The position numbers and the translations under genes were made by a program. Positions 797-60,034 of a stretch of 64,000 nucleotides of DNA are shown here, in pieces. This stretch comes from Mustelus asterias (Eukaryota), in NCBI RefSeq assembly GCF_964213995.1, contig NW_027590164.1, positions 496,001 to 560,000 of the forward strand. The letters are read 5' to 3'. Numbering within the stretch: the first letter of the stretch is position 1; each line of letters starts with the position of its first letter. The notes beneath the pieces are model-generated. The model was not told where the DNA came from, made no database searches, and was given only the letters and a program-made list of their open reading frames with translations.

Positions 797-983
797 TCTG
801 AATCCATGTCCATCCATTGCTCAGTTTTACCTCTGCCCTCCCTGATCACCTTTCTGTCATTGTCTAACTTCCCTCTGTCTCTAATGCTGGGTATGTTTTA
901 ACTGTGTTTAATATTTTACTGTTAGATTGTCGAAATGAAGTTTCCACTGTTGTCCCTCCCCCGACTATGTATTGATGGTGATA

Positions 984-1256: not shown

Positions 1257-1292
1257 CTTTTTTAAAAAATTACTAGCTTTATCTTCCCACAG

Positions 1293-35586: not shown

Positions 35587-35625
35587 GGTTTTTGTACGGG
35601 GTTTTAGCGATAATCTCACGCTGTG
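35587..35625 (-). promoter_or_regulatory. Recombination signal sequence, 23-bp spacer
   Basis: CACAGCG + 23 nt + ACAAAAACC (consensus nonamer). Confidence 0.92.
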
Positions 35626-36125
35626 TCTCAATGCACAGTAATAGACCGCCCTGTCCTCCATACAGAGGGCCCTTATATTGAGGTAACCATTCTGTTTAGA
35701 CTTGTCAACAGCCGCAAGATATTGTCCTGAAACCTCATCTGTCGTCAGTGCTAAGACTTTGGTAATAATCCATCTCGAGGGTTGTGACGGTTTCTGCTGA
35801 TACCATTGCATGTAGATCATATTGGGGTCTGTATGCATACAATCTAACTGCACCGAACGCTCTTCTGACGCAGCTATTGTCACTGGTGACTGAGTTACTG
35901 GATCGGTGCACAACCCACCTGTAAAGTTAGAGGAATGAAATATCAAATGTTTGAACAGAATTGATCTTAATTTGTTTTCAAATGCGTGGACTCTACCCAT
36001 CATATCGATATTTCTGACAGTTAGTGATGCCAAATATTATTGCAATTTATAATCTGCTAATCTGGCAGGATGAACATCATCCACCACTTACCATCTAACA
36101 GCACCGACAGTGTGATCAGAAGCAT
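35626..36125 (-). CDS. TCR alpha/delta-type V gene segment, apparently intact (leader 36092-36125, V exon 35626-35918)
   Basis: Leader MLLITLSVLLD-G|gtaagt and acceptor ctttacag. Spliced frame of 109 codons with Cys(VQLDC), WYQQKP and YYCALR, followed directly by a 23-RSS. Confidence 0.88.
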
Positions 36126-36312: not shown

Positions 36313-36327
36313 GGCGCCCTCTGGTGC
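36313..36327 (-). promoter_or_regulatory. CTCF-like motif upstream of the V leader
   Basis: GCACCAGAGGGCGCC, ending 188 bp upstream of ATG 36125. Confidence 0.6.
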
Positions 36328-37465
36328 GAGATTCTGTTTAATCCGGTTTAGAATGCGGCCATTAAGTGCATTCAGAGTGTATTGAAATGCACATAAAGAC
36401 GCGAATGTTTCCCATTGGAGCTGCTTGGACACAGTTTTTGTTACTCTCGATGTCAGAAAGTTCAGCTGTTTCTGTATATCGCGACCAGAAAGTTAACCGT
36501 CTCCATCTACGTCCTGCACATGACCAAATAGGAACAATGGTATACTCGGAGAAAGGGCGGCTGTTATGTATCAGAATGTGCAAAGGGATAAGGAACGTTT
36601 ATACAAATCTGTAAGGAAACTTCTTGAAACAAAGATGGTACCATGGAGACTCAATTGATGTGTTGAAATATTGCCCTCTCCTCTCGGCGGTAATTACTTT
36701 CATGAGCAAAAGATTCAATGCCAAAATCATTCCAATTGTATAGACAAGTGAAATATGAATTTTATTTATTACATTGCGATACGTTGGCATCTGGAATAGA
36801 GCGCCTAAAATGCCGAAGGAATAGGATTCAATAGCAATTTTCAAAAGAGGAATATCACAGCGTGGAAAATGCGCGGTGTGAAAGACAATAGACAGCATTT
36901 TGAAACAGGTATGGTAATGCGAATGCGCATTTCGTACCCTAACTTCCGATGACTCTTGGCTGTTCATGCCACTCCCAGACTATTTCTTAATCACTTGAAC
37001 ACTGAGCAAGTGCAGGATGGTGACTGAAGTCTGAAGGTTCAACCGAGGCTAATTCCGCTCCGTCATTTGCGTCGGCAGCTGATAGCAGCGGCACACTTTT
37101 ATCAGTTTTTAGCCTGCAGTGCCTCGGCAGCAGCTTCCGTTTGCTCTGCACGCTCTGAACCGATGCTGCTGTTGGAGTCACGACTGCCTCTGGCCCATTC
37201 CTATCATTAGTCAGGTCAGCAGGGCAGGAATAGGGAACCTGTCTGTCTGCTCTGAAAGAACATTTCTGCTTCCAAGAGCGATGTACAGCAGAATTGATGA
37301 TCTAGCGTACAAGAAAAAAATGCCGTGCCTGTTTTCATCATTAAAACACGAACAGTGTATGAAACGAGGAAGGAACTAAACAGTCAATATAGTTCAAATG
37401 AGCCAAAGATGAGATTTCAGTATTCAGGTGCAGAAAATGAGTAACACGCTGCTGATGATGTTAAA

Positions 37466-38190
37466 TAGGGTTCTGAAGACTGTGGAGGAACAGAGAGATC
37501 TTGGGGTCCATATCCATAGATCTCTAAAGGTTGCCACTCAAGTGGATAGAGCTGTGAAGAAGGCCTATAGTGTGTTAGCTTTTATTAACAGGGGGTTGGA
37601 GTTTAAGAGCCGTGGGGTTATGCTGCAACTGTACAGGACCTTGGTGAGACCACATTTGGAATATTGTGTGCAGTTCTGGTCACCTCACTATAAGAAGGAT
37701 GTGGAAGCGCTGGAAAGAGTGCAGAGGAGATTTACCAGGATGCTGCCTGGTTTGGAGGGTAGGTCATATGAGGAAAGGTTGAGGGAGCTAGGGCTGTTCT
37801 CTCTGGAGCGGAGGAGGCTGAGGGGAGACTTAATAGAGGTGTATAAAATGATGAAGGGGATAGATAGAGTGAACGTTCAAAGACTATTTCCTCGGGTGGA
37901 TGGAGCTATTACAAGGGGGCATAACTATAGGGTTCGTGGTGGGAGATACAGGACGGATATCAGAGGTAGGTTCTTTACGCAGAGAGTGGTTGGGGTGTGG
38001 AATGGACTGCCTGCAGTGATAGTGGAGTCAGACACTTTAGAAACATTTAAGCGGTTATTGGATAGGCACATGGAGCACACCAGGATGATAGGGAGTGGGA
38101 TAGCTTGATCTTGGTTTCAGATAAAGCTCGGCACAACATCGTGGGCCGAAGGGCCTGTTCTGTGCTGTACTGTTCTATGTTCTATGTTCT
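37466..38190 (+). mobile_element. CR1 3' fragment, young (near-identical to 12706-13430)
   Basis: ORF 37428-38108 is nearly identical to ORF 12475-13350; (GTTCTAT)n tail. Confidence 0.92.
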
Positions 38191-38687
38191 AGTCAAATGA
38201 CCCAGATATAATGCACAGCGACGCTGATTTCAGAATAGAAAGAAATATAAATATGTGGAATTGTTGCGGAAGACTGTTTCAACACAAAGATCGATTCCGT
38301 GACTCCTCTTTTGTTTGGTTTAATCTCAAAGACAGAGTATTGGAGGGAATGGGAAAGGTGAAGCAGGGGGGAGAGGGACGATTGTCCTGAGCAGAGACTT
38401 GAGTAACTCTAGGTCTTTCCACCACAGGAGGGAAAGTCCCGAATTCAATCAAATTTGTTACGCAAGACTTACCCTTCACAAATCCATGTTGACTATCCTG
38501 GATTAAGCTGCATCTTTCCAAATGGTCATGAATTCTATCCCTCAGGACCTTTTCCATGAACTTACCGACCACTGAAGTAAGACTAACCGGCCTATAATTA
38601 CCAGGGTCACTCCTATTTCCTTTCTTGAACAGAGGAACAACATTCGCCACTCTCCAGTAATCTGACACTATCTCCGTGGACAGTGAG

Positions 38688-41600
38688 GAACATAAGAACA
38701 TAAGAAATAGGAGCAGGAGTAGACCATCTGGCCCTTCGAGCCTGCCCCGCCATTCAGCAAGATCATGGCTGATCTGAAGCGAATCAGTTCCACTTCCTCG
38801 CCTGCTCCCCATAACCCCTAATTCCCTTATCGATCAGAAAACTATCTACCCGTGATTTAAACATATTCAACGAGGAAGCCTCCACCACTTCAATGGGCAG
38901 AGAATTCCAGAGATTCACTACCCTCTGAGAGAAGAAGTTCCCCCTCAACTCTGTTCTGAACCGGCCCCCCCTTATTTTGAGACTGTGCCCTCTAGTTCTG
39001 GTTTCCCTTCTAAGTGGAAAGAATCTCTCCACCTCTACCCTATCCAGCCCCTTCATTATCTTATATGTCTCTATAAGATCACCCCTCATCCTTCTGAACT
39101 CCAACGAGTACAGGTCCAATCTGTTTAATCTCTCCTCATAAGCCACACCCCTCATCTCCGGTATCAACCTGGTGAACCTTCTCTGCACTCCCTCCAAGGC
39201 CAATATATCCTTTCGCAAATAAGGGGACCAAAACTGCACACAGTACTCCAGTTGCGGCCTCACCAGTGCCTTGTACAGTTGCAGCAAGACCTCCCTGCTT
39301 TTATATTCTATCCCCCTCGCGATAAAGGCCAACATTCCATTCGCCTTCTTGATCACCTGCTGCACCTGCAGACTGAGTTTTTGCGATTCGTGCACAAGGA
39401 CCCCCAGGTCCCTCTGCACAGTCGCACGATGTAATTTTTCTCCATTTAAATAATATTCCAATTTACTATTATTTCTTCCAAAGTGGATAACCTCACATTT
39501 GCTAACGTTATATTCCATCTGCCAGATCCTCGCCCACTCGCTCAGCCTATCCAAATCTCTCTGCAGACTTTCCGCGTCCTCCACACAATTCACTTTCCCA
39601 CTCACCTTCGTGTCATCAGCAAAGTTGAATACCCTACATTCAGTCCCCTCCTCCAGATCATCTATGGAAATGGTAAACAATTGAGGCCCCAGCACCGATC
39701 CCTGCGGTACGCCACTGGTCACCAACTGCCAACCAGAAAAGCACCCATTTATCCCAACTCTCTGCTTCCTGTTAGATAGCCAATCCCCAATCCACGCCAA
39801 CTCCGCGTACCCCAATCTTCTGCAGCAACCTTTTGTGAGGGACCTTATCGAACGCCTTCTGGAAATCTAAAAACACGACATCCACTCGTTCCCCTCTGTC
39901 AACCGCACTAGTGACATCTTCGTAAAAGTCCAGTAGATTCGTCAAACACGACTTTCCCTTCATGAATCCATGCTGCGTCTGCTTGATCGAACCATTCTTA
40001 TTCAGGTGCTCTGTTATTTCCTCTTTAATAATGGACTCTAGCATCTTCCCAACTACGGACGTTAAGCTAACTGGCCTGTAGTTACCCGCCTTTTGTCTAC
40101 TTCCTTTGTTAAACAGCGGTGTAACAGTAGCTGTTTTCCAGTCAGCCGGCACTACCCCAGAGTCCAGCGAATTTTGATAAATTACTACTAACGCATCTGC
40201 TATTACCTCAGCCGTTTCTTTCAGTACCCTGGGATGCATTCCAACCGGGCCCGGGGACTTGTCTACCTTCAGTCCTATTAGTCTACCAAGCACCACCTCC
40301 TTAGTAACAGTAATTGTATTAAGGACCTCCCCTCCCACCAACTCTCGATCTCTAATATTCGGCAAACTATTTGTGTCTTCCACCGTGAAGACCGACACAA
40401 AGAACTTATTTAAAGTCTCAGCCATTTCCTCGTTTTCCACTATTAAATCCCCCCTCTCATCTTCCAAGGGTCCAACATTCACTCGAGCCACTCTATTCCT
40501 TTTTATATACTTGTAAAAACTTTTACTATCATTTTTTATATTTTGAGCTAGTTTAGTTTCATAATCTATCTTTCCTTTCTTAATCGCTTTCTTAGTCGTT
40601 CTTTGTTTTTCTTTAAAGCTTTCCCAATCCACTAATTCTCGACTATTTTTGGCCACTCTGTACGCATCTGATTTTATTTTAATACTCTCCTTTATTTCCT
40701 TCGTTATTCACGTCCGATTATCCTTTTTCTTACAGTCCTTCTTTATCACCGGAATATATTTTTGCTAAGGACTTAAAAAAATCTCCTTAAAAATCCTCCA
40801 CTGTTCCTCAGCTGTCCTACTTACCAGTCTGCTCGCCCAGTCTACATTAGCCAATTCCACCCTCATCCTATCGTACTCCCCTCTGTTCAAGCAGAGGACA
40901 CTGGTTTGGGACCCTACTTTCTCACCATCCATCTGTATCAGAAATTCCACCATATTATGATCACTCATCCCAAGAGGATCCTTCACAAGAAGATCCTTAA
41001 TCCGACCTGTCTCATTGCACAGAACCAGATCCAAGATAGCTCGCTCTCTCGTAGGTTCTGTAACATACTGTTCAATGAAACAATCCCGACAGCATTCCAA
41101 GAACTCTTCCTCAAGCCCTCCACGTCCAATTTGAGTCGACCAATCAATATGTAGGTTAAAATTCCCCATGATTATTGCCGTTCCACTTTTGCACGCATCC
41201 ATTATTTGCTTGTTTATAGCCCTCCCCACCTCTAAGTTATTATTTGGGGGCCTATAGACCACGCCTACCAGTGTCTTTCTCCCCCTACTATTGCTTATCT
41301 CCACCCACAACGATTCCACGTTTTGCTCCTTAGAGCCTATGTCGTCTCTCACTACCGTCCTGATATTATCCTTTATTAACAAAGCTACCCCACCTCCTTT
41401 TTCTACCTGTCTATCCTTCCTAAATGCCTGATAACCCTGTATATTCAGTTCCCAGTTCCGGTCACCCTGCAACCACGTTTCTGTGATGGACACTCGATCA
41501 CATTCATTTGTATGGATTTGTTCCCTCAACTCATTTACGTTGTTTCGAATGCTTCGTGCATTCAGGCAAAGTGTCTTTATGCCAGCCTTTATCTGGACCC

Positions 41601-42700
41601 GGTTTGTTGAAGCGCTACTAACGTCTCCCAAGCCCTCTCCTCCTTTAGCTAGTTGTTTATTCACTATACTCCTGGCATTAGAGTAGACACATCTCAATCC
41701 TATGGTCTGACCTCTCCCCTTCTCTGTTCCCAGTCCACCTGCCCTCTTGCACTGCCTATAACCCTTCTCTGTTTGCGAGCTACCTTCCTCACTCTCATTC
41801 ACGTCACTTTGATCCCCTCCCCCCAACCTATCTAGTTTAAACTCTCCCCAGTAGCCTTAGCCAACCTTCCCGCCAGGATATTGGTCCCCCTGGGATTCAT
41901 GTGCCACCCGTTTTTAGTATACAGGTCACACCTGCCCCTAAAGAGGTCCCAATGGTCCAGGAACCTGAATCCCTGCCCCCTGCACCATTCCCTCAGCCAC
42001 ACATTCATCCTCCACCTCACTCCATTCCTTTCCTCACCTTCCCGTGGCACAGGCAGCAATCCCGAGATTACTACCTTTGCTTTCCTCCTTCTCAGCTGTC
42101 TCCCTAATTCCCTATACTCTTTTTTCATGTTCCCTTCCCCCTTCTTACCCACATCAGCGGTACCAATATGTACCGCTACCTCCGGCTCCTCTCCCTCCCA
42201 CCTCAGGATTTCTGGGACTCCCCCAGGGACATCCTGGATCCCAGCCCCAGGGAGGCAGGCCACCATGCGAGACTCCCGCCTGCCACCGCAAAATCGCCTG
42301 TCCGTCCCCCTGACTGTCGAGTCCCCGATTAATACCGCCTTCCTCCTCCTTTCCTTAGCCCTCTGAGTTACAGGGCCGGACTCCACCCCGGAGACGTGGC
42401 CACTGCTGCTTCCCCCAGATGGGCTGTCCCCCCCAACAGTACTCAGACAGGAGTACTTCTTATGTAGGGGCACTTCCACCGGGGTGCTCTTAATCACCCG
42501 TGTTTTACCCTTCCTGGCTGTCACCCACTTGGCCTCCTCCCGTGGCCCTGGTGTGACCACCTGATGATAGCTCTTGTCTATCACCTCCTCATTCTCCCGC
42601 ACCCGCCTAAGATCCTCGAGCTGCAGTTCCAGCTCCCTAACACGGGCCCTCAGGAACCGCAGCTCGACACACCCCTCACAGATGTGGATGTCCGGGAGGA
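38688..42700 (-). mobile_element. Near full-length CR1-clade LINE: ORF1 (Zn-finger/coiled coil + SGNH esterase) and disrupted ORF2 (APE + RT), nested in an older CR1 (38440-38687 and ~42700-43190)
   Basis: ORF1 41832-42722: CEGC, leucine-zipper-like RVRELELQLEDL, LIGDS, VHIGTAD, GWHMN. APE motifs LNARS, ITETWL, GVVYRPP, ILDLV, SDH. RT motifs FQKAFDKVPH, GVPQGSVLGP, FADD. (TTCTTATG)n tail at 38688. Confidence 0.92.
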
Positions 42701-43901
42701 CCCACAGATCATCTGCAATCACATCCTTTGCTTCCCAAATAATCCGAGGTTATATCCCATCTGGCCCAGGGGACTTACTGAATCTCAGGTTTTTCAAAAT
42801 TGCTAATACATCTTCCCTCAGAACATCCACCTCCTCCAGCCTATCAGCCTGTATCACACTCTCATCCTCAAAAACATGGCCCCTCTCCTTCGTGAAAACT
42901 GAAGAAAAGGATTCATTCATTGCCTCTCCTATCTCTTCTGACTCCCTGCACAAGTTCCCATTACGATCCCTGACCGCCCTAACCTCACCCTGGTCATTCT
43001 TTTCTTCCTCACATAAGAGTAAAAAGCCTTGGGGTTTTCCTTGATCCGACCCGCCAAGGACTTCTCATGCCCCCTCCTAGCTCTCCTAAGCCCTTTTTTT
43101 AGTTCATTTCTTGCTACCTTGTAACCCTCAAGCGACCCAACTGAACCTTGTTTTATCATCCTTACATATGCTTCCTTTTTCCTCTTGTTGGACTTGTTGG
43201 ACTTTAACCTAGTGTTGTGAGACAACTTACTGCGCCCACCCCAGTCCAACGCCGGCATCTTCACATCATCGATAAACATTTTGCCAGCAAATTAAAATTT
43301 TAAAAAGGTATAAGATATGGAAGCAGATAGATGATTAGGAATAAGTGGATAATTGATTAAGTGAGACAGGACATAAGTAATGGGCCGAACCTCCTCTCCG
43401 TGTGCTGTAAAACACTATGATTCTAAGATAATCAATTGTTCTGTTCAGTTAGAAATACAAAAGAGCACAGAACTTATGAAAGAATTTACTCTGTTACACA
43501 CAGGAAGCAAAGAGATTCAGAAGCAGTGACAGTCCAAGTGGTGTATGGTTTGACAAAAGCCAATTGCTCAGTGGCACCGTGAATAACGTCAGATAACGAC
43601 ATCCCATCATAGTCCATTCGGTGACACTGCCCATCAGCCTCACATTCAGCTCTCGCCTCTCCTTCCCCTTCCCATCATTCACAGTCCCGACCTTGGCTGC
43701 AAGTCCCAGTCTCGAAATCAGACCCGGTATGATCCTGTTGTACACCGTCATCATCATGAAGACAAACCCCCGCAAAGACTTGTTTCCAGTTGGAGCTCAG
43801 ATACAGCTGATATTGTGTGACTTTATGAATTTACTCAGACGCATTATTTTAAAAGTCTCTTAATACCGTGTGGTTTGTGAGTGATTTTGTTTTGTTCACA
43901 G

Positions 43902-44222
43902 CCGTTCAGTGTGAGGATCGGAGCTCCCGCCCTGAGCAGGTGGTGCCTTGGGAAGTGAAACGGGTTCAACTGACCTGCCTGCCCCCCTTTGCTACAGGCG
44001 ATACCATGGTCTGGTACAGACAAGCACTGACAGGGGCTCTGACATTTATCGCCTCCATTTACGAGGAGAATATGACCTCAGGGTGTTACACACTATGCTT
44101 TGACCGAGTAAAGAATTCAAATCCAATCTCTATAGATGACACCACGGTCCAGGACTCAGGGATTTATCTCTGTGCGAAGCAGACGCAGTGAGACAAAGGA
44201 TGGGGCCGGTTGTACAATATCT
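43902..44222 (+). pseudogene. TCR V segment (open V exon 43902-44183) with a defective 23-RSS; no clear leader donor
   Basis: Acceptor ttcacag; VQLTC..WYRQ..DSGIYLCAKQ. Heptamer CGCAGTG 44184-44190 (critical CAC lost), 23-nt spacer, nonamer ACAATATCT 44214-44222. Leader-like MILLYTVII at ~43729. Confidence 0.78.
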
Positions 44223-44677
44223 TATTCACTGTCTTGTCTCCACTGGAATTTTAATCTGTCCCCAAACCAATACCTTTCGAAATGCCGGTGACATTAGAAC
44301 TATTATTTTCCCGTGCTTATACTTCGACCTGGATAGAGTCGCAATGTCCGACAATTGTTGCTACAGATGCAATGTGTCGAAACATATCGAGTAAACTCTT
44401 TTGTTTCGTTGTTCCACACACAAAGTAAAGAGAGTGAGGAAAAATACCTGTTTCTCTGATGCCGAGGCAGATCGATATGCGAGAGAAAGATACCTAAACA
44501 AGGGTGTAGAAAGATGGAAAGAGCGATAATATGTAGATCGGCAGAGTCAGATATACAGAAAGGCAGATAGATGGGTCGATAGACGCATAGATTAGTTAAT
44601 TCCATCTATTTATGGAAACACTTCATTTATTTATTTTTGTATGTATTTTTATGTTAGTTTTGTGTTTGGTTTCACAG

Positions 44678-44845
44678 TTGTTCCTGATCACTCGGAGACA
44701 TTTCAGATTTCGATGCATCGGGTTAAACAAGGACAGACCATCTCTCTTCATCACAATGTTACTGTCGCTGCAAATGACTTTGTGTTCTGGTACCGGCAAT
44801 TCACCGATCAAGCTCCCGAGTATACTTTGGTAATGATGCAGGCGC
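44678..44845 (+). pseudogene. Truncated TCR V relic (5' half only)
   Basis: Acceptor tttcacag; VKQGQTISL..FVFWYRQFTDQAPEY. First Cys absent; 3' half and RSS missing. Confidence 0.6.
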
Positions 44846-45106
44846 GTCAGAAAACTGAGATAAATAATTTTTTATCAATACTCAACAACAAATGAAGCAA
44901 AACCAGAATGACAAAGGCAGCAGATGTTGTAGCAATAACATCGAAGTAATAAAACACATGACAAACTGCAACAATAAAAACCCGTAATACGATGCAGCAA
45001 CATAAAATCGCTGTTTCACAGATGACGTCCCAAGACCTCATCTTTCGCTAAAACCTGCAGAACCGTCAGTTTCCCCAATCACAGGCGACAGCTGGAGTTA
45101 CAGGAA

Positions 45107-45402
45107 ACGGCACAGTGGTTAACACTGCTGCCTCACAGCGCCAGGGACAAGGGTTCGATTCCCGGCTTGGGTCACTGTCTGTCTGGAGTTTGCACGTTCT
45201 CCCAGTATCTGCATGGGTTTCCTCCGGGTGCTCCGGTTTCTTCCCACAGTCCGAAGGACGTGCTGGTTAGCTGCATTTGTCATGCTAAATTATCCCTCAG
45301 TGTACCCGAATAGGCGCCGTAGTGTGGCGACTAGGGGATTTTCGCAGTAACTTAATTGCATTGTGAATGTAAACCTTACTTGTGACTAATAAACGTTACT
45401 TT
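45107..45402 (+). mobile_element. V-SINE variant with the alternative tail
   Basis: Same structure as 5703-5990 and 26871-27165. Confidence 0.78.
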
Positions 45403-45907
45403 AAATATCTGGGCGTCTTGACACCACCACAAAACACAACGCATTTAGTGCAAGAGCCGATGTGTGAATTACGGAAGCTCTGGAACAGATACAGGTCTTC
45501 TGGACCAGAAACTCTGGGATCCATCTCCACTTCATGGCTACAGAGGATGTGTTCCTTACCCGGTCACACAAGTTGATGATCTGCTCGTAAATTCTTCCAA
45601 TCAGCCGAATGACAAGTGAAAAGAACAGGAGAGTTTCTTGGCCAGCCTTACTGCAGGAGGTAATGGAAACAACTGCATGACTTTGTCAGGCATAATCATA
45701 GGGCAATCTAATTGAAGTCTCTGGTTATCGAGCGCCACCTCAGGGCATGGTATCTGGTACATGGTACCTGCCATATTACTGAATGAAATATTTTGCTGAG
45801 TCCAAGTTGTCTGCTTTGTTTTCTACAGTGACGGCGAAAGAGTTTGGGTCATCAAACTCGATAAATATTCTCATATTCATTCTCTAAACTGCCCAGTTGC
45901 TTTTTTT

Positions 45908-47625
45908 ATAGAACATAGAACATAGAAAGCCACAGCACAAACAGGCCCTTCGGCCCACAAGTTGCGCCGATCACATCCCCACCTCTAGGCCTATCTATAG
46001 CCCTCAATCCCATTAAATCCCATGTACTCATCCAGAAGTCTCTTAAAAGACCCCAACGAGTTTGCCTCCACCACCACCGACGTCAGCCGATTCCACTCAC
46101 CCACCACCCTCTGAGTGAAAAACTTACCCCTGACATCTCCTCTGTACCTACCCCCCAGCACCTTAAACCTGTGTCCTCTCGCAGCAACCATTTCAGCCCT
46201 TGGAAATAGCCTCTGAGAGTCTACCCTATCCAGACCTCTCAACATCTTGTAAACCTCTATCAGGTCACCTCTCATCCTTCGTCTCTCCAGGGAGAAGAGA
46301 CCAAGCTCCCTCAACCTATCCTCATAAGGCATGCCCCCCAATCCAGGCAACATCCTTGTAAATCTCCTCTGCACCCTTTCAATGGCTTCAACATCTTTCC
46401 TGTAATGAGGTGACCAGAACTGCGCGCAGTACTCCAAGTGGGGTCTAACCAGGGTCCTATAAAGCTGCAGCATTATCTCCCGACTCCTAAACTCAATCCC
46501 TCGATTAATGAAGGCCAGTACGCCGTACGCCTTCTTGACCGCATCCTCCACCTGCGAGGCCGATTTAAGAGTCCTATGGACCCGGACCCCAAGGTCCTTC
46601 TGATCCTCTACACTGCTAAGAATGGTACCCTTCATATTATACTGCTGCTTCATCCCATTGGATCTGCCAAAATGGATCACCACACACTTATCCGGGTTGA
46701 AGTCCATCTGCCACTTCTCCGCCCAGTCTTGCATTCTATCTATGTCTCGCTGCAACTTCTGACATCCCTCCAAACTATCCACAACACCACCTACCTTGGT
46801 GTCGTCAGCAAACTTACCAACCCATCCCTCCACTTCCTCATCCAGGTCATTTATGAAAATGACAAACAGCAAGGGTCCCAGAACAGATCCCTGGGGCACT
46901 CCACTGGTCACTGACCTCCATGCAGAGAAAGACCCCTCCACAGCCACTCTCTGCCTTCTGCAGGCAAGCCAGTTCTGGATCCACAAGGCAACAGCCCCTT
47001 GGATCCCATGCCCTCTCACTTTCTCAAGAAGTCTTGCATGGGGGACCTTATCGAACGCCTTGCTGAAGTCCATATAGACCACATCCACCGCTCTTCCTTC
47101 GTCAATGTGTTTGGTCACATTTTCAAAGAACTCAACCAGGCTCGTAAGGCACGACCTGCCCTTGACAAAGCCGTGCTGACTACTTTTGATCATACTAAAC
47201 TTCTCTAGATGATCATAAATCCTGTCTCTCAGGATCCTCTCCATCAACTTACCAACCACTGAGGTTAGACTCACCGGTCGGTAATTTCCCGGGCTGTCCC
47301 TGTTCCCTTTCTTGAATATAGGGACCACATCTGCAATCCTCCAATCCTCCGGAATCTCTCCTGTCTCCATCGACGATGCAAAGATCATCGCCAAAGGCTC
47401 CGCAATCTCCTCCCTCACCTCCCACAGTAACCTGGGGTACATCCCATCCGGTCCCGGCGACTTACCAACCTTGATGCCATTCAATAGTTCCAACACATCC
47501 TCTTTCTTTATGTCCACATGCTCGATCCTTTCTGTCCACCGCAAACCAGCAGTACAACCACCCAGATCCCTTTCCACCGTGAATACCGAGGTAAAGCATT
47601 CATTAAGCAGCTCCGCCATTTCTAA
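45908..47625 (-). mobile_element. CR1/HER1 LINE, 5'-truncated, with an uninterrupted RT frame
   Basis: ORF 45991-47700 contains KSPGPDG, NYRPVSLTS, DFSKAFDKVPH, GVPQGSVLGP and FADD with no stops; (TTCTATG)n tail. Confidence 0.94.
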
Positions 47626-47722
47626 CGGTGATATATTTTTAGTATTAAAACATTTATTGTAATTAATGGTTTGAGAATTCACCAGGATTTCAGGTTCCAT
47701 TTCAGACTCACTCGGATCACAA

Positions 47723-49133
47723 TGTTTGCCTAATTCTCTGTTATGTTGAGCGAGGCTCTGACAGTTTTTGTACAGGTTCAGCCCAGCTCTGTGTCTCTGT
47801 GGGACTCAGTGCGCAGTGATAAACCCCGGAGTCTGGCAGCTCTGTTTCAGACACTTTCAACGGGACGGTGCGTGTTGTATCATTGAGCTCCGCTGAAAAA
47901 CGGTCCCCTGGGGACCTCCCTGTGCTCCCGGTGAATTTAACTGTTTGCAGCAGATACTCCATGGGCCCGTTGGGATACAGACGGTACCAGAATAGGAAAG
48001 GGTTTGTTGCTTGTAGCTGTATAATTACAGAACCACTGAACATCATCTCCTTCAGTGACGGTGACTGCAGGTTTCTGCGAAACAGAATCTCCTCGACAAT
48101 GCCCTGTTGCAGCACAAATAAATATTAAACTAAACAATGCGACTTCACTCTGTTTCCCCCAGAATCTTCCCGTCATCCTGAACAATAAACTTAAAGAGAA
48201 ATCAGACAGCAGAACAAGAACATATTTTTCACAGTTCAGTGGTTGGAACGGGAAGGTATTTGTGGTGGTTAAATCAAACTTCTACCGTAAACATTCTGTA
48301 CTTTCTAACGAGATCAGTTCCTCCCCTTCAGTCCCTGTAACTGGAACGGGAAATTGCCCACTGTCTGTTTGTAAGTCTGGTTATTTTTAAAATCATTTAC
48401 TGGTACCAGGGGAGTTTGAATCTCAGCCTAACTCATCCAATCTCATTCCCTGTGGAAAATGTGCCGACTCTCAACAAACAGTTTTCAGTATTGAGACCAC
48501 CGAGATCCAAATCACTATTCGAGGTTGGGATCAATCCGATCACCCAACCCCAGTCCCTTGTACTGAGCGAACAGCCCGTCAGAATATAGTGTATGGTAAT
48601 GGTGTACAACACAAGAATTGAGCAACTTGTGAACTGACCGGGAGTAATCTCAGCGCCAAATGTCACATGTCTCAACAGTGACGATCGTTAACCTCAGCGA
48701 GGGAATACAGTTCAGACGGGCCTGTGTAGTGGCCTTAATTCTCTGTACATGTCGATTAGATGCGACTCTTTTTTTGTACGGAACCATTGATGATGAACTT
48801 GCACCGGTTTTTGTATGAGGTCCGTGGGAGCCTTATTCACTGTGGGTTTCAGTGCACAGTAATACACGGCGCTGTCTGTCATCTTCAAACCTTTCATGGA
48901 CAACTAAAAAGTGCTTTGTTTCAGGTTCAGATTCCCGCTGAAATGCTCAAAGCCGTGAGCCGTCTCGTTAGACCCATAACATCGGCTCTGAGCAGATACT
49001 GAGGAGCGCGGTGTGGATACTGGCGATACCAGAACAGGCCATAGCCTGTAGCTGAACTCGATAGAGAGTAATTGCAGGATATTGCTGAATCTTCACCCTC
49101 TGCTGCTTCAACTCCTGGTTCTGACTGGGACAC
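47723..49133 (-). repeat. Inverted duplication, arm 1 (mirror of 58529-59939)
   Basis: Mirror ORFs have a constant coordinate sum of 107662 (e.g. 47741+59921, 48712+58950); only a handful of substitutions. Confidence 0.96.
47763..48223 (-). pseudogene. TCR alpha-type V pseudogene (V exon 47802-48103, 23-RSS 47763-47801)
   Basis: GDSVSQKP..WFCNY [frameshift] FWYRLYP..DSGVYHCALSP. RSS CACAGAG-23-ACAAAAACT. Leader MFLFCCLISL with the donor apparently mutated (ttaagt). Confidence 0.85.
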
Positions 49134-49324
49134 TGAGTCTCCGCTACTCATCTCTGAAGATAAACAGCAGACACACAGTGGATTAGGATTACGAGGAAGA
49201 CAATAATCAGACAGAGATGGGAAAAGGAAATTGCGCAGGGATCGCGATATATTTTAGGAAAGTTCCAGTTTCACTGACCTGCGATCAGGGCAATAATCAG
49301 AGTTAGAAACATTTTCACCCCCAT
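48806..49324 (-). pseudogene. TCR alpha-type V pseudogene (leader 49279-49324, V exon 48845-49153, consensus 23-RSS 48806-48844)
   Basis: Leader MGVKMFLTLIIALIA-G|gtcagt; GDSVSQSEP..ISCNY..LFWYRQYP [frameshift, TAG] DSAVYYCALKP; CACAGTG-23-ACAAAAACC. Confidence 0.88.
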
Positions 49325-49510
49325 GGTTCCAGTCTGAACTCCAGGAACATAAATACGGATTTCTGGCTGTAACCGACCTGGAATGTGAGAATTTGAAAGA
49401 GCAAGGAAAATGCAATACGATTGGCTGAGTTTTATTTCCCCTCCCATTTTTATGTCGGTAAATAGACACTTTCTGAAGATGGAGGCCGTGATGTTTTGTA
49501 GTGATCTCAG

Positions 49511-49525
49511 AACGCCCTCCCGTGG
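49511..49525 (-). promoter_or_regulatory. CTCF-like motif upstream of the V leader
   Basis: CCACGGGAGGGCGTT, ending 187 bp upstream of ATG 49324. Confidence 0.5.
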
Positions 49526-51233
49526 ACAGTACAACCGCATTTGAAACAGACACAGAACCAAGAGTCCAGATATATACACTCCGTGAAACATAGAGACACA
49601 GAAATATCCAGTATAGCTACAACTCTGGACAAGAGGAAACATCCACTCCACATCCACCCTGTTATTGGACTTCCGGTTTGAAAGGTTTCAATCAAGTTGC
49701 TTCTTTCTCTTCTAAACTTCAGTGGATGCAAACGCAGCATCACCATCCTTTCCTCGTAAAATAACCCGCTCATCCTGGTAATAGTTTAGCAAACCTTCTA
49801 CAAACATTTTCTAAAGCATTACCATCTTTCTTTAGATAAGGAGACAAGTATTGTACACAATGTTCCAAATATGGTCTCACAAATGCCCTGTACAACGGAA
49901 ACATACCCGACCTATTTTCGCAATATATTCCCTCATAATAAGTGATAACATTCTCTGATATTTTCTAATTAATTGCTGTACTTGTACATTAGCCCCTTGT
50001 GATTCCTGGACTAGGACAGCCAAATTCATTTATACCTCAAAATTTCGTGATCGCTCGCCATTTAAATATTAACCTTATTTCATATTCATCATGCCAAAAT
50101 TGACATTTTCACATTTTCCCACATTATACTCAATTTGCTGGAGATTTGCCAATTCACTTGATCTACTTATGTTCTTTTATATTCTCCCTCCGCCCTCTTC
50201 ACAACTTATTTTCCTATCTATCTTTGTGTCGTCAGCAAAGTTAGCATCCATATCTGCTCTGTAACATATCACTGTTGAATCCAACAATCAATCAAGTTCT
50301 CTTGGCTGTCTGCTCTGTAACATTTCATGGTGGGGTCGAAACTGCTCCTCCTGCAGTGAAAACACAAAAACGGTGAGGGAGCACCCTCTTGTGGTGATGT
50401 GAAGTAAATAGCCTCTGCCTGGGAGATCACTGAATCCTCAGATTACAGAAGGATCTTATTGCAGGATATTGCTGCTGCATTTTTCATGTTCATATAATAG
50501 TTATTATAATATACATAAATTCACATGGAACTATGCACGGAACTAATAACAACTTCAATTTGAATCCTTGTCATTTATTTTATTTTTAATAGCCCAGGTT
50601 TTTCTGTTAAACTATGCTCGTGTTACATAATTTGAAACCACAGCAATACTGATACAATTCGAACTCTTAATGAAGTTATCTCCACATCGAAAGGATGTAA
50701 ATTTGACTCGCATATATCTGATATATTGTTGGATTTCATTGCAACTGCTTCGATTTGAAACTTTCTCAATAGTTGTGGTTGTTATGTTTTGTCTAACATA
50801 TCAGCTGTCCGTTAATGGGATTTTGGGGAACTTATTGAAATGGGTGATTGGGAGAAATTGAATGTTCCACATTCTGCTATTTCCTGGAACACGGTTGAGG
50901 GAGAAAGCGGTCCTGAGACACAGAGACGGAGAGGCCAAAAGGTAGAGTGTGGCAGACAGACACTGAGCCGAACAGAGAGCCAGAGATACAGAAAAGGACA
51001 GACAGGAGACAGAGCAACAATCAGATGAAGTAATTGGGCTGCAGCTAACATTGATGGGTGGCCAATTCTTGAGAAAACTGAGGAACCAGCCAATCCTGTA
51101 ATTAGGCAACGCCTCTTAGTTTCCCAATAAATAAAGCCTGCCCATGATGTGAAATTACTTCTTCATGTCAGAGTGGAAGAGTTGAAATATTTTTAAAATT
51201 CTGCTATTTTTGTAGAATTCTGTAGCAGGAAGC

Positions 51234-51671
51234 ATGTTCTTCCAAATTTCTTTACTAATACTGTTGGTTTTGCTGCCCGGTGTTTAAATAGTCACTGTCT
51301 GTTCTCAGCGTTCACTATCAGATATTTAATTGATTCTGTAATTTGTTGCAGGAACCAATGGCAAATATGGTTTCCTCTGAATTAACGGTTCATGAAGGAC
51401 AGGCCATAAAACGGGACTGCAGTTATTCGGGTGCTGATGTTCGAACTCTGTTCTGGTACCTCCAGTGTTCTGGGAAAACTCCGAAATATTTATTGACGAT
51501 ATATGGCACAGAAGCCACGTCTGAAGATTCTCCAGATAGATTTTCTGTTGCTTCCACAAAGAAAACAAAGCAGTTCCTTTAAGTTTCATTGGGGCGCTCT
51601 CTCTGTCAGCGCTGTGTATTTCTGTGCCATGGAGCCACATTGGTGCATAGAGCGAACCACGGACAAAAACC
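51234..51671 (+). pseudogene. TCR alpha-type V pseudogene (leader 51234-51279, V exon 51352-51635, RSS with a 20-nt spacer)
   Basis: Leader MFFQISLLILLVLLP-G|gt; TVHEGQ..DCSY..LFWYLQ..PKYLL..SAVYFCAMEP spread over frameshifts. CACATTG 51636-51642 + 20 nt + ACAAAAACC 51663-51671. Confidence 0.83.
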
Positions 51672-51696
51672 CAAGACTTAGAGTTCCAGGTAGTGG

Positions 51697-51711
51697 TCAG
51701 CAGAGGGCGCT
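51697..51711 (+). promoter_or_regulatory. CTCF-like motif
   Basis: TCAGCAGAGGGCGCT, a close match to the CTCF core consensus. Confidence 0.6.
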
Positions 51712-52001
51712 CACACACTGATAAACATAAGTAATTACTCAGCCTGTGAGAGTCACAGCGTCATTTCTGAAATAACACAACACAACATTCAGCAAGAACA
51801 AGTGAACATCAGCTGAGGAATTGTATTAGGTAGGTTTTGACTTGCATTTGCATTGAACAATAATTTCACAAATCACTTTATTATGGGTTCACTCACCTCT
51901 TCTATTTTCGTGACCTTTTCGTGTCTGAATTAATGAGCAACACTTTCACAATCTGCACTCTCTGCGTCCCATTGACCACAGCCGGTGCATAGTGTCTATT
52001 T

Positions 52002-54791
52002 CAGGGGTCTCCAAACTTTTCAGTACGAGGGCCACATCGTATATTTTACACATTTTCGGGGGCCAGAGAAAAGAATTAGTTTTATAAATGAATGAATAAA
52101 ATTTAAATGAATGAATAAGTTTTATTTGGATCATCTTTGTAATCAGCATGATATGATTCAGGACAAAAGAGAAATGTGACAATTACAAAGAAACAATGCC
52201 GTGTTTACATTGAGAAATGATATATAATGAGTAAAGATGTCAAACATTAGCAAATGCTCTGACAAAATAATCAATTACTTAACGGCAGATGAGAAAAGCA
52301 CGCTATTCATTTTAAAATTAATTTTATTTACTGAAATTTTACAAATGTTTACTTGAATGAGAATTTGCCCAATTATGTGTCACACAATAACAAATATAAA
52401 CACGCACGGAGAAAGAACTTCAGTAAAACAAAGCAAAGAAATTCAAAATAAACTTGAACCATTAATAAAGGTCGAACAAAAATAAGTTCAGTCTGCACCT
52501 TTCTACACAATTCTGGCAATTGGAGTTTTCAATCGTAACCAACAAATCATGAAGTTTTGCACAAGATTAATGGGAATGATGGAACTGCTTTTTTAATTTC
52601 ATAATATTGCTGAACTGAGGTTTCAAGCTTGAGGAGCCAATTATTAGAATGGACTTCAAATGCTCATCAGATAAATTTGCTCGATACTTGGACTTGACAT
52701 ACTTCATTTTTGAAAATGTTTGTTCACACAGGTAAACAAAACCTGATACAAATCCACAAGCAAATCGCTTCAAATTTGGAAACTGCTCAGACTGCAAAGA
52801 TTTATAAAATTGATCAGATTTCCTTCTTTATACTTGTCTTTCAGCATGTCATCTGATTGGAGATCAATAATTTCCATTTGAAACTGACTTGGGAGTGTTT
52901 CAACATTGCAGCCAAATGGATTTTGAAACAACTGTATTTCATCTGTGTTTCCATCAAGATCAGAAAATCGTTCCTGAAATTTTTTTTGCAAGTCCTTAAT
53001 GATTTCTGTTGCAAATGAAGAGGGAAATTCTGCTTCACTTTCTTCATGAAAATTTTCACAACATAGAAAATGAACCAAGTTATGAACTTTCAGCTGTCCT
53101 TGAAATAGCATCAGTTTTGCCCTGAATGCCTTGACATGCGCGAATAGATCACAAATCAAATTTGTTTCACCTTGCAACTTCAGATTCAATTGATTCATAT
53201 GGCCTGTCACGTCCGCAAAAAATGCCAATTTCCAAAGCCAGTCAGTGTTTGATAAAAGTGGTTCGGTCGATTCTTCTCTGTGAGAAAGGAATCAATTTCC
53301 TCTCTGAGCTGAAAGAACAGTGATATAACTTTTCCACAACTAAGCCATCGAACTGCTGTATAATAAGGCAAGTCACCGAACTCAGAATCAGTTTCTTTCA
53401 GAAAATCACGAAACTGGCGATGAATAAGCCCATGAGATTGAATGAAATTCACTGTTGAAACAGCAGGTTTCAGAACGCAAGACATATCCACTTATTTTCC
53501 ACACAATGCTTGTTGATGGATAATGCAATGCAGAAACATGGGCTTCGAGAATCCACCAACCTCACAAGCTTTTGTGATTTGTCCAACCAAACCTTTCTTC
53601 ACCCCAGGCCTGTTCTTTCCTCCATCAGTTGTCACCCATTGCAGTTTATTCCACTCCAGGTTATATTCTAACACAGTTTTTTGCAATGCTTTCAAGATGT
53701 CTTCTCCAGTTACTGTGCTGTGCAAGCTATGCACTGATGCTAATTCTTGTGCCACGTTAAGTGCACTGTCGACGCCACGGATGAATACTAGGAGTTGTGA
53801 TGTGCCAGACACCTCATTCGATTCATCAAGTGCGAGAGAATACAACTGAAAATTTCTTGCTTCGTCTGCAATTTGATGAAATATGTTGCTTCCTATATCC
53901 TCAATTCTACGAGCAACAGTATTTCGCGCAAGACTGATGATTTTGAACAGATTTGCTTTTTCTGGGCATAACTCTTCCATTTCTTCCATTATACACTCTT
54001 TGATGAGATCTCCATTGGTGAATGGCTTTCCTCTTTTAGCCAAGACATAAGCTAGTTTGTAAATGGCCCTGGTTAAAGCTTCATTTTCAGTTATCTTCTG
54101 CGTAATAAAAGCTTGTTGGGAAAGCAACCTGCGTTGCATTGATTCATTTTTTTTCCGAACGCTGTGTTCCTGTAAATTGGGAATAACTTGGTTCATGTTT
54201 GGTCTCATAGTGCCGACGTACATTGTACTCCTTCAAAACAGCAACAGTTTCGTTGCATACGACACACAAGGCTTTATCACCTGCTTGTACAAAGAAGTAT
54301 TTTACACCCCATTCTTCATTAAACAGGTGGCACTCACTGTCCACTTTTCTTTTCTTTTTTCCTTCCATAACTGAATTGCTCTGAATTACCGCCATCATTG
54401 TCATTGTTCTCGCTCATTTCAGACAGATGGAGCTTACGGATTGGATAAAGCAGCTGTCACTCAGTCAATGCAGAGCGGCAATTGGATAGCAGATGTCTCA
54501 ATTGCTGAATCGTTTAATGAACTGTCAGTCACAGGACGGCAGCTCTGATTGGACAATAGGCCGGCAAAGAGGGCAGGATTTTCCATGGGTCCATCAGACA
54601 CCGCGCGGAGCGGCAGCAAATGTCCGGCCTGTGGCTTCCGTTCCCGCGTCCGGATCCTGAGTCAGCGGCGGTGTTCCGGACGCGGGAATGTTTTCGGCAG
54701 CGGGAATCCCGTCCCGCCCCACTGGCTACGGGCCAGATGTAGCCCGCTGGGGGCCGGATTTGGTCCGCGGGCCTTTGTTTGGAGACCCCTG
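52002..54791 (-). mobile_element. hAT-superfamily (Charlie/GTF2IRD2-like) DNA transposon, 2790 bp, with a frameshifted transposase (~54368-52567)
   Basis: Perfect 15-bp TIRs CAGGGGTCTCCAAAC (52002-52016; 54777-54791). BED-like CVVC..RRHYETKH; YSLALDES; TTDGGKN; HCIIHQQALC; VRWLS; C-terminal CEQTFSKMK dimerisation motif. Confidence 0.93.
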
Positions 54792-56099
54792 TTTTAAACG
54801 AAATCAAATATCTTTGAAGGGAAGAGATTTAAGAATGATCAGTTAGTTCTGCTTGATCCCTCTTTATTCTGTGTGTGAAACATTCTGGTGCCTAAATCTC
54901 GTCCATCTCCTGGACGTCCAGCAGGTCGGCACTGATTCTCGATTTCCACATCTGCCTGAATGGATTTTCCTATTTCTTTATCATGAGGAGCAACTGTTAT
55001 AAAGGATGCTTCTGGGAAATGTGCGCTATTCCCTCTGGTTCAGTTACAGTGACACTTGTGTCTGTCTTTTTGCGCACACAATACTATTAGACATGTTTCA
55101 GATGGTGATTAACTATGTTAGTCTGCACCTTTCAATCCATCGAATTCTGTTGTACACTGAGCGAAATACTAATTTGTGCACGATTCTTTCCTGTCAAAAT
55201 ATTTTGCAATTCTTAATTTACAGAAAGCATTTGAGGTCGAGGTCAGAGCAAGGATAATATGGCTGTAACACTGAGATTCCGATAATGTTCTGCAACCAAC
55301 TGAAATATGAATTTCCCTCACGCTGTATGAAAAAGTTTAACGAATGCTTCAGCAGGTTTACGAACCAGGTATTTTTACCGTGTTATGCGAACGTGATAAC
55401 CACGACACGACAGAAACAAGTAACAACCTGGCTGCCCCCATGTTGCCTGAATACAATGTTCAACTCCAATGAGTTGCTGCAAGTTCCAAAGGTTAGATTC
55501 AGAGCCCATGTCACTTAATCCAAGGAGACATCCTTTTTTTTCAACCTGATTTCTCAATTTATGTTGAACTTCAAACGTAAAAAGCGTTCGTCCCGCTAAG
55601 GGAGCAATGAATGTTCCTCATTCATCAAAGCGTCATTGTCATCTTCCTTCGAATAATCGCAACCAATTGTACTCAGTATTTGTTTCCTTATTCAATATTT
55701 AACATCGATACATTATTTAACATGTCCTCATTATGAATTGAATATCTCTGAAATTGAATATCACTGAATTGCAAACATAACTGACCAAGAAAAGGAGTCG
55801 AATCACCGGGTAATACAGATCCCATGGCGTTTGTTTGAGATTGACCATCGTCAGCTTTTAAACAAAGTCAACTATAATTAAATGGAAGAGATTGAAGAAT
55901 TATTTGTTAGGTATACTTGAGCCTTTTTTATTATAAATGTGAAACATTCAGGCGCATAAATTCCGGCCATCTAAAGGAAAGTCCAGTTGATCCGCACTGA
56001 GTCTCTGTTTCCTCGTCTGTTTGAGTGTTCTTTCCGATTTCTATGTTCCGAAACACGATTTTTTAAAAAAGATTATTCTGGAAAATGTGCGCCATTTCA

Positions 56100-57720
56100 A
56101 AGAACAAAGAACAAAGAAAATTACAGAACAGGAACCGGCCCTTCTGCCCTCCAAGCTGTACCGACAATGCTGCCCGACTGAACTAAAACCCCCTACCCTT
56201 CGGGGACCAAATCCCTCTATTCCCTTCCTATTCATGTATTTGTCAAGACGCTCCTTAAAAGTCGCTACCGTATCGGCTTCCACTACTTCCCCGGCAACGA
56301 GTTCCAGGCACCCACTACTCCCTGTGTAAAAGATCTGCCTCGTACATCTCCTTTAAACCTTGCCCCTCGCACCTTAAACCTGTGTCCCCTAGTAATTGAC
56401 TCTTCCACCCTGGGAAAAAGCTTCTGACTATCCACTCTGTCCATGCCTCTGGCTTTGTCAAAGGCAGATCATGCCTAACGAGCCTGATTGAATTAGTTGA
56501 GGATGTGACTGAACACATTGATGAAGGAAGAGCAGTAGATGTAGTATATATGGACTTCAGCAAGGCATTTGATATGGGGCCCCATGCAAGGTTTATTGAG
56601 AAAGTGAGGGGGCATGGGATCCAAGGGGACATTGCTTTGTGGATCCAGAACTGGCTTGCCCACAGAAGGCAAAGAGTGGTTATAGATGGGTCATATTCTG
56701 CATGGAGGTCGGTCACCAGTGGAGTGCCCCAGGGATCTGTTCTGGGACCCTTACTCTTTGTGATTTTTATAAATGACCTGGATGAGGAAGTGGCGGCAAG
56801 GGTTGGTAAGTTTGCTGATGACACAAAGGTTGGAGGTGTTGTGGATAGTGTGGAGGGATGGCAGAAGTTGAAACGAGGCATTGATAGGATGCAAGACTGG
56901 GCGGACAAGTGGCAGATGGACTTCAACCCAGATAAGTGTGAGGTGGTTCATTTTCGCAGGTCAAATAGGATGGCGGAATATAATATTAGTGGGAGGACTC
57001 TTGGCAGAGTGGTAGATCAGAAGGATCTTGGGGTCTGAGTTCATAGGACGCTCAAAGCAGCTGTGCAGGTTGAGGCTGTGGTTAAGAAGGTGTATGGTGT
57101 ACTGGCCTTCATCAATCGACAAATTGAGTTTAGGAGTCGTGAGATAATGTTGCAGCTATATAAGACCCTGGTCAGACCACACTTGGAGTTCTGTACTCAG
57201 TTCTGGTCGCCTCATTACAGGAAAGATGTGGAAGCCATAGAAAGGGTGCAGAGGAGATTTACAAGGATGTTGCCTGGGATGGGGAGCATGCCTTATGAGG
57301 ATAGGTTGAGTGAGCTCGGCCTTTTCTCCTTGAAGAGTCGAAGGATGAGGGGTGACCTGATCGAGGTGTATAAGATGCTGAGAGGTATTGATCGAGTGGA
57401 TAGTCAGAGGCTTTTTCCCAGGGCTGAAATGGTTGCTACAGGAGGACACTGGTTTAAGGTGCTGGGGAGTAGGTACAGAGGACATGTCAGGGGTAAGTTT
57501 TTCACTCAGAGGGTGGTGGGTGCGTGGAATGGGCTGCCAGCAACGATGGTGGAGGCGGATTCGATATGGTCTTTTAAGAGGCTTTTACATAAGTACATGG
57601 AACTTAGTAAGATAGAGGGTTATAGGTAAGCCTAGTCGTCGCTAAGGGAGGGACATGTTCGGCACAATTTTGTGGGCAGAAGGGCCTGTATTGTGCTGTA
57701 GTTTCTCTATGTTTCTATGT
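56100..57720. mobile_element. CR1 3' end (-, ~56100-56449) abutting a 5'-truncated CR1/HER1 copy (+, ~56450-57720)
   Basis: ORFs 56505-57038 and 57063-57629 (RT interrupted by a stop); CR1 tails at both outer ends. Confidence 0.88.
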
Positions 57721-57856
57721 TAGCAACGCAAACAAATAGGTGTCAGAAACCTGCAGAATAATTCTGGATTTATAACGAGGGACGTTAGAATTAATGTCAC
57801 TGTCTGGGCATATATCTATATGGTTATATATCCTTATTCGTGTTGGTCTTTCCACG

Positions 57857-58087
57857 TGACCGTGTGTGTATCTGTTCTCCGCATGTCTGCTGGGTTTCCT
57901 CGAGTGCTGTGGTTTCCTCCAACAGTCCAAAGATGTGCGGATTAGGTGGATTGGCCATGCTAAATTGATCCCTAGTGTCAGGGAGATTATGTGTGCGGTT
58001 ACGGGACTAGGGCCTCGGTGGAATTGTGGTCGGTACAGACTCGCTGGGCCGAATGGCCTCCTTCTGTACTGTAGGGGTTCTATGATT
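57857..58087 (+). mobile_element. HE1-type SINE, 5'-truncated and diverged
   Basis: Core GGGTTTCCTC..GGTTTCCTCC..AGTCCAAAGATGTGCGG and tail TTCTATGATT. Confidence 0.75.
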
Positions 58088-58140
58088 AGATGATCTCTAT
58101 ATGTGTCAGTATTTGCAGGTTGCCGTGTGTGTACCTGTTT

Positions 58141-58155
58141 CCACGGGAGGGCGCT
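58141..58155 (+). promoter_or_regulatory. CTCF-like motif upstream of the V leader
   Basis: CCACGGGAGGGCGCT, ending 188 bp upstream of ATG 58343. Confidence 0.55.
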
Positions 58156-59939: not shown

Positions 59940-60034
59940 ATTCTGTTTGTGACTCTCACAGGCTGCCTGGCCTGATGAATATCTCCAAGATTTATTTTCT
60001 TTATCCCAGATACAGTCTCTACAGAGTTTTGAAA

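Follow-up and report, generated by a model that had tools for sequence, protein, structure and literature searches.

The window analysed here is a 64,000-nucleotide stretch of the genome of the shark Mustelus asterias (G000:C132:496,001-560,000 in a 3.68-Gb genome; the labels C71, C546, C232 and C315 denote other contigs or scaffolds). It contains eight variable (V) segments, which occupy both strands and are interspersed with repeats and C2H2 zinc-finger arrays, together with motifs resembling the binding site of CTCF. A sequence-only reading of the window had proposed that such motifs precede V leader ATGs at a fixed distance of ~188 bp, oriented with transcription as at mammalian TCR (T-cell receptor) alpha/delta V promoters. 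Our analysis demonstrated that oriented CTCF-type motifs are present at TCR alpha/delta V promoters of this cartilaginous fish above chance at the family level. These promoter motifs are real and limited to some families.

V segments and CTCF-type motifs in the window

The features that bear on the motifs are given below in window positions (RSS, recombination signal sequence).

35626..35918, minus strand: intact V exon of family F2 (Pfam V-set, E 1e-11)
36092..36125, minus strand: leader exon of the F2 V (MLLITLSVLLD); a GT-AG intron of 173 bp comes next
35587..35625, minus strand: RSS of the F2 V, 23-bp spacer, one mismatch
36313..36327, minus strand: CTCF-type motif, promoter site of the intact F2 V, 188 bp before the ATG; 16.6 bits, 1 mismatch
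48806..49324, minus strand: F3 V pseudogene copy 1, with leader, intron, frameshifted exon (49153-48845) and perfect 23-RSS (48844-48806)
49511..49525, minus strand: CTCF-type motif, promoter site of F3 copy 1, 187 bp before ATG 49324; 12.4 bits, 3 mismatches
58343..58856, plus strand: F3 V pseudogene copy 2, probably a chimera, with a promoter at 92% to loci L116/L131 and an exon at 98.7% to copy 1
58141..58155, plus strand: CTCF-type motif, promoter site of F3 copy 2, 188 bp before ATG 58343; 14.8 bits, 2 mismatches
51234..51671, plus strand: F1 V pseudogene, leader from 51234, exon from 51352, degenerate RSS 51636-51671 with 20-bp spacer
51697..51711, plus strand: CTCF-type motif, RSS-type, 25 bp behind the nonamer of the F1 pseudogene; 20.4 bits, 1 mismatch
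50380..50394, minus strand: CTCF-type motif, core of an E2 element between head-to-head V genes; 17.2 bits
45731..45745, minus strand: weak motif match, no V gene behind; 8.2 bits, 3 mismatches

Bit scores were calculated with a reconstruction of the JASPAR matrix MA0139.1, and sites of at least 12 bits are termed strong; as a second yardstick, mismatches were counted to the printed CTCF consensus CCASYAGRKGGCRS (PMC6746451). All five 15-mers named by the sequence-only reading (36313, 49525, 58141, 51697 and 45731) were found where it had placed them, and the distances to the named ATGs were reproduced upon re-measurement (188, 187, 188, 172 and 196 bp, respectively). Four of the five score 12.4-20.4 bits, and all five are within one to three mismatches of the consensus. 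Across the whole window, consensus matches occurred at chance level (9 observed vs 10.8 expected); therefore, position alone carries the signal.

The three main sites, 36313, 49525 and 58141, sit before genuine V leaders. The V behind 36313 belongs to F2, the other two to F3. F3 copies 1 and 2 are 98-100% identical in exon and 3' flank over 1.43 kb and have a frameshift in common, with promoters only ~71% identical; they are two promoter sub-lineages within one family, not two independent families. The shared tract is inverted (47723-49155 and 58507-59939) and begins at the V exon; joined to promoters and leaders of different sub-lineages, it likely reflects gene conversion or chimeric duplication. 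The closest longer proteins to the intact F2 V (35626-35918) come from catsharks, at 63-68% identity, and a search of the PDB returned generic antibody V matches only.

The two remaining sites turned out not to belong to V promoters. Site 51697 sits 25 bp behind the RSS nonamer of the F1 pseudogene and is an RSS-type site, not a promoter site; ATG 51883, tried as its V leader, matched no V leader among the fetched loci. Site 45731 has homologs of 3.9-7.1 bits and lies within the shared 3' flank of two convergent V genes, and ATG 45535 was rejected as a V start. The strong minus-strand site at 50394-50380 had been overlooked in the earlier reading.

Promoter motifs across V families

The annotation comprised 229 V segments from the window and from 80 fetched loci of 10 kb each, and eight more in 198 kb of C232 (237 in all). 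After 31 had been dropped for a missing 5' end, less than 700 bp of upstream sequence or as unrelated singletons, 206 were scored over a promoter zone 250-700 bp before the V exon. The loci were sampled mostly around F2 and F3 matches, and many copies are near-identical. Since the sampling is centred on these two families, shares counted by gene are skewed, and a count by family is fairer.

Strong motifs occurred in the promoter zone in the sense direction in 57 of the 206 V segments and in the antisense direction in five. The sense sites fell to F3 (31/35), F2 (18/35), F11 (4/4), F4 (2/21), F9 (1/8) and F20 (1/1), with none in F1 (40 segments), F5 (18), F6 (10), F7 (10), F8 (7), F10 (5), F12 (3) or F13 (4). 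Three of 13 families, F3, F2 and F11, have a family-wide promoter site and ten do not (binomial P of 2.4e-4 under a Markov background and of 0.011 under a conservative one). When the matrix was replaced by 150 column-shuffled versions, 130 trials yielded no such family, 20 yielded one, and none yielded more. The printed consensus at two or fewer mismatches returned the same three families. This survey of V upstream regions supported the sense orientation, in three families, and did not support general presence or fixed spacing.

Strong motifs are concentrated at V clusters: the V-centred DNA, 864 kb in all, held 215 of them, and there were none in 160 kb of C232 that is poor in V genes or in 185 kb before and across the joining (J)-constant (C)-alpha region. 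Shuffled matrices gave 4-56 matches, compared with 208 for the real matrix. The CpG observed/expected ratio was 0.57 in V-centred and 0.36 in V-poor DNA.

Within part of F7 (G000:C546:41,748; L002, L004, L030, L031 and L033), an antisense 12-bit motif lies ~400-540 bp before the ATG, and in the inverted C546 copy it points to J. The intact F2 sub-lineages include decayed versions of the motif; those in L004, L013, L040 and their relatives often have another strong site further upstream, either E2 in sense at ~1.7 kb or element E5 in antisense at ~870 bp, which hints at turnover. Weak RSSs went together with a site in F11 and F13 but not in F6, F10 or F12, and the idea of a link was dropped.

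Spacing between motif and start codon

In F3, the motif ends 162-191 bp before the ATG in 30 of 31 measured promoters, with a mode of 188 and one case at 367 bp; in F11, the distance is 180 bp in 4/4. In F2, it is 246-277 bp in 15 of 16 promoters, and 188 bp in the window copy only. Most of this difference in length comes from a C/CA-rich block of 64-86 bp in most F2 promoters and 17 bp in the window copy; when the block is left out, 6 of 11 promoters have a span of 171-174 bp. The families have in common a basic distance of about 170-190 bp, which can lengthen while the motif is kept. With ten families lacking a family-wide site and strong F2 motifs at 246-277 bp, a general or fixed ~188-bp rule is not supported.

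TATA-, cAMP-response-element (CRE)- and CCAAT-like words are found 40-130 bp downstream of the motif. Because it holds these words, the interval between motif and ATG reads as a putative core promoter plus 5' untranslated region (UTR), not as a nucleosome ruler. The suggested spacing of one nucleosome repeat is at odds with an interval that is elastic and occupied in this way.

Conservation and promoter relics

Among 12 non-redundant F3 promoters (3 of 15 were dropped as interrupted or absent), the motif was the most conserved upstream 15-mer, scoring 0.97, where the median was 0.645 and the second-highest value 0.835; 30 of 32 copies carry one and the same 15-mer. F11 promoters were too uniform for conservation to be judged.

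That the motif could be used to find cryptic V relics was confirmed for one family, as the exact F3 motif led to F3 promoter homologs in 20 of 20 cases tested. An 18-mer of F3 occurs 127 times in the genome, its reversed control never; among the 100 places listed, all are on C71 or smaller contigs and none on C1-C70. Twenty matches, chosen for having no listed V nearby, comprised two full broken V segments, nine with leader or intron only and nine consisting of ~110 bp of promoter only. Conversely, a promoter search without the motif in the query gave 40 matches, and 28 of the 30 loci fetched had the 16.3-bit motif, one had a weaker version and one had none; since identity is 98% or more for 23 of these 30, this adds little. 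In a second organism, both promoters are covered by contigs, and none of the differences listed lies inside either motif, an observation that we did not count as evidence.

A trio of strong motifs, one plus and two minus, is found at G000:C546:18,095-18,547, upstream of the V cluster, and a similar trio recurs ~2.4-2.8 kb before several F3 genes (elements E9, E11 and E12).

Sites behind RSSs and between genes

Of the ten families without a promoter site, two (part of F1, and F13) carry an RSS-side site instead. Like the 51697 site at 25 bp, RSS-type motifs lie 24-26 bp behind the nonamer in ten other F1 and three F13 segments, all in sense. Elsewhere, a fish-like V (L083:2183-2880) has a promoter motif 143 bp before the ATG and another motif 34 bp behind the RSS, and a GC-rich V of another vertebrate (L091:450) has a motif 35 bp behind a weak RSS.

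The conserved intergenic element E2 is present in 25 copies of at least 12 bits in the sampled DNA. All nine of its variants keep at least 12 bits (4.3 expected), three of them with 5-7 changes, the variants being related to each other and found with a query that contained the motif. E2 provides the best sign of CTCF-like constraint in this data set. It was also considered as the promoter of an undetected V, and this was rejected, as neither V nor leader lies within ~1 kb downstream of five copies. The upstream module for zinc fingers 9-11 (ZF9-11) was not seen at the F2, F3 and E2 sites of the window; the RSS site has a partial match.

Arrangement around J-alpha and C-alpha

A search for C-alpha with Pfam PF09291 found nothing. 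With a white-shark C region as query (protein P0004), two C-alpha matches were obtained, at C71:18,419,407 (+) and C546:240,165, each behind a J cluster; on C71, 34 J motifs precede C-alpha. The fetched parts of the two regions gave no long near-identical alignment, and they may be two loci or poorly matched haplotypes. V relatives are spread over scaffold C71 and many unplaced contigs, and scattered TCR alpha/delta V exons have been described for elasmobranchs (PMC12227049). On a single contig, C546, the F2 family and its site are found upstream of J-alpha/C-alpha.

Upstream of J-alpha on C71, a hand tally counted 19 V matches on the plus and 18 on the minus strand, and the F3 18-mer occurs there four times on the plus and five times on the minus strand. 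In the J-proximal cluster of C546, three inverted V segments with open frames and near-consensus RSSs lie directly upstream of J; this cluster is biased, with 7 of 8 sites toward J. Sites are not co-oriented toward J because the V genes lie about half on each strand. RAG scanning uses convergent RSSs only (PMC11153149), and linear scanning, which the sequence-only reading had invoked, cannot be the general mechanism, since V genes and sites occupy both strands relative to J-alpha.

Behind C-alpha, seven strong motifs lie at 30-35 kb (G000:C71:18,449,161-18,454,581; L113 and L114), five on the minus strand (pointing back) and two on the plus strand (pointing onward). Three of these are in tandem-duplicated ~1-kb units with E-box- and CRE-like words, and there is in addition a divergent pair. 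By analogy, the cluster is a candidate counterpart of the mouse Tcra enhancer boundary.

Age and occurrence in other vertebrates

A tree of 41 V proteins did not group F2, F3 and F11; F11 joined F10, which has no site (96/88), and the tree does not resolve its base. With F11 beside the site-less F10 and such a base, the picture is compatible either with common ancestry followed by losses or with repeated gain. A single metagenome scan yielded 14 loci, 11 of them with V genes, and ten of these V loci probably derive from bony fish. Among ~7 V lineages, two, represented by three copies, carry a motif in sense that scores 17-19 bits and lies 143-168 bp before the ATG; a third has a 14-bit motif at 361 bp, and four have no promoter motif. 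Oriented CTCF motifs have been reported at the borders of topologically associating domains in skate (PMC10115646). In listings of the openly accessible literature, we found no paper that describes such sites at the TCR V promoters of sharks or fish, and the word CTCF is absent from the main text of both the shark locus paper and the salmonid locus paper (PMC8559430).

Other features of the window

43756..44222, plus strand: F10 V, open exon, weak RSS, without strong promoter motif
47763..48105, minus strand: F6 V pseudogene (frameshift) with 23-RSS, without strong promoter motif; 5' end approximate
59557..59899, plus strand: F6 V pseudogene copy in the 1.43-kb near-identical tract; 5' end approximate

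The window further contains a direct duplication of ~4 kb (614-4588 and 60031-64000, 99.3% identity) that holds C2H2 zinc-finger arrays. Two facing C2H2 arrays, at 20630-21200 (+) and 28000-28824 (-), have 7 and 10 pattern matches, respectively, and are ~86% alike.

Proposed role and alternative explanations

The explanation toward which we lean, with guarded confidence, is that these are promoter-built CTCF-type motifs of three TCR alpha/delta V families, predicted to act as loop anchors that bring V near J-alpha. As judged from the sequence, CTCF is quite likely to bind them. Because the motif faces the gene and lies immediately before the core promoter, CTCF bound there would make cohesin pause where a V promoter is active. 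The site would travel with its gene when V cassettes duplicate or invert, so its orientation would follow the gene, not the locus. With about half of the V genes inverted, it would be short-range diffusion, as at mouse Igk and Trbv1, that completes the joining, and not linear RAG scanning. A candidate loop partner is the motif cluster located 30 kb behind C-alpha. The site would be optional, given that intact F2 sub-lineages hold decayed copies and ten of 13 families have none.

Several observations weigh against this explanation. The F3 motif differs from the consensus in two positions of its core, and it includes the GC-box-like word GGGAGGG. The F2 motif window is not especially conserved (0.76, rank 107 of 388; 11 of 13 promoters), and retention of the F2 score is near neutral (6 of 9 vs 4.9 expected; the neutral-mutation simulation was not significant); 15 of 31 intact F2 genes have no strong site in the scored zone. 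The survey is weakened by its F2/F3-centred sampling, many near-identical copies and the reconstructed matrix. At the level of the locus, any link of the window's own contig, C132, to J-alpha is presumptive, and strong sites point both ways (22/20 on C232, 10/16 on C315). No reverse site of at least 12 bits occurs between the V cluster and J-alpha on C546, or in the 110 kb before the first J on C71; therefore, no TEA (T early alpha)- or Cer-like anchor was found.

Alternatively, CTCF may bind as a local boundary only, keeping V promoters open and unmethylated in a region rich in repeats and zinc-finger genes, with no role in V-J looping. The orientation that follows the gene instead of the J region, the failure to find an anchor upstream of J-alpha, the higher CpG ratio of V-centred DNA and the position of the site at roughly the 5' edge of promoter homology all agree with such a boundary. 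However, sites also occur beyond promoters, behind RSSs or between genes, a motif cluster lies behind C-alpha as in mouse, and the J-proximal cluster of C546 is biased toward J; we regard a purely local boundary as rather unlikely. The near-invariance of the F3 motif even at non-consensus positions, its two to three mismatches to the consensus and the missing upstream module at promoter sites would suit a GC-box-type element of another zinc-finger factor, presumably of the Sp/KLF/MAZ class, for which F3, and perhaps other motifs, would have a CTCF resemblance only. This explanation is quite unlikely, because agreement with the consensus is closer at the F2, F11, RSS-type and E2 sites, whose variation falls mainly at positions that it tolerates, and because composition-matched shuffled matrices do not reproduce the signal.

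We consider it very unlikely that functionless chance matches in a few ancestral promoters were multiplied by recent duplication. The chance-level count across the window, the 98-100% identity of many copies, the persistence of the motif in pseudogenes and promoter-only relics, and the near-neutral F2 retention would be expected from such a history, but three separate families with sites all in sense, the conservation peak in F3, the complete absence of sites from 345 kb of control DNA and the similar placement in fish-like V genes would not. Finally, a general CTCF-to-ATG ruler of ~188 bp, or one nucleosome, serving linear RAG scanning, could draw on the F3 mode, the F11 distance, the window copy of F2 and the F2 span without its simple-repeat block. 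It is contradicted as a general rule and hardly credible, as nearly all F2 sites are farther away, ten families have no site, and V genes lie on both strands upstream of J-alpha on C71, with three inverted open-frame V segments directly before J on C546, in conflict with the restriction of scanning to convergent RSSs (PMC11153149).

Under the loop-anchor explanation, a broader proposal can be made, which we hold only tentatively and rather doubt: in sharks, V cassettes on both strands and both sides of J-alpha would loop to a two-way CTCF cluster behind C-alpha, and joining by diffusion with the aid of such loops would predate the co-oriented arrangement for scanning at mammalian IgH. How a distant V reaches J has been worked out almost only in mice. 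If true, a shark locus with promoter-, RSS- and intergenic-type sites and a C-alpha-side cluster would place the origin of this layer of control at the root of the jawed vertebrates. A natural test of V usage is offered by sister F2 genes on both strands, some with a strong and some with a decayed site.

Comparison with known systems

At mouse and human IgH, VH RSS-associated sites lie at a fixed distance behind the RSS in V-sense (PMC6746451), which fits 51697, part of F1, and F13. The shark sites differ in belonging to a TCR locus and in their distance of 25 bp as opposed to ~18 bp in mouse, although measuring conventions may differ, and the IgH type does not describe the shark promoter sites. 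Nor are the shark V RSSs generally convergent with the J RSSs, as IgH-type scanning demands. Mouse Igk (PMC11153149) and Trbv1 (PMC10772921) resemble the shark locus in having V segments in both orientations with CTCF sites among them and mostly strong RSSs; there, inverted V segments join by diffusion after CTCF-anchored looping (PMC11153149, PMC10772921), and inverted TRAV genes are expressed in salmon (PMC8559430). However, the orientation of Igk sites does not track that of the V segments (PMC5859386), whereas the shark promoter sites do, and Igk has the Cer anchor before J, of which no counterpart was found in the shark.

The mouse EACBE, two CTCF motifs behind the Tcra enhancer (PMC7515734), shares with the shark the presence of strong motifs downstream of C-alpha. 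The shark cluster, unlike EACBE, has seven motifs in both orientations, three of them in tandem-duplicated units, and lies ~30 kb from C-alpha. The mouse Tcra/Tcrd locus contains 144 bound CTCF sites, many of them upstream of V promoters, and 129 of the 144 point to J-C (PMC5859386); the sites upstream of V promoters have also been reviewed (PMC7696796). As in mouse, the shark motifs lie upstream of V promoters in a TCR alpha/delta V array, at part of the V genes only, accompanied by some intergenic sites and a site cluster behind C-alpha. In contrast to the measured occupancy in mouse, the shark sites are predicted from sequence, and they point in both directions because the V genes do; the shark field extends over >12 Mb on one scaffold, and no TEA-like site was found. 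By this comparison, the shark motifs most likely work like the promoter sites of mouse Tcra/d, without their locus-wide orientation.

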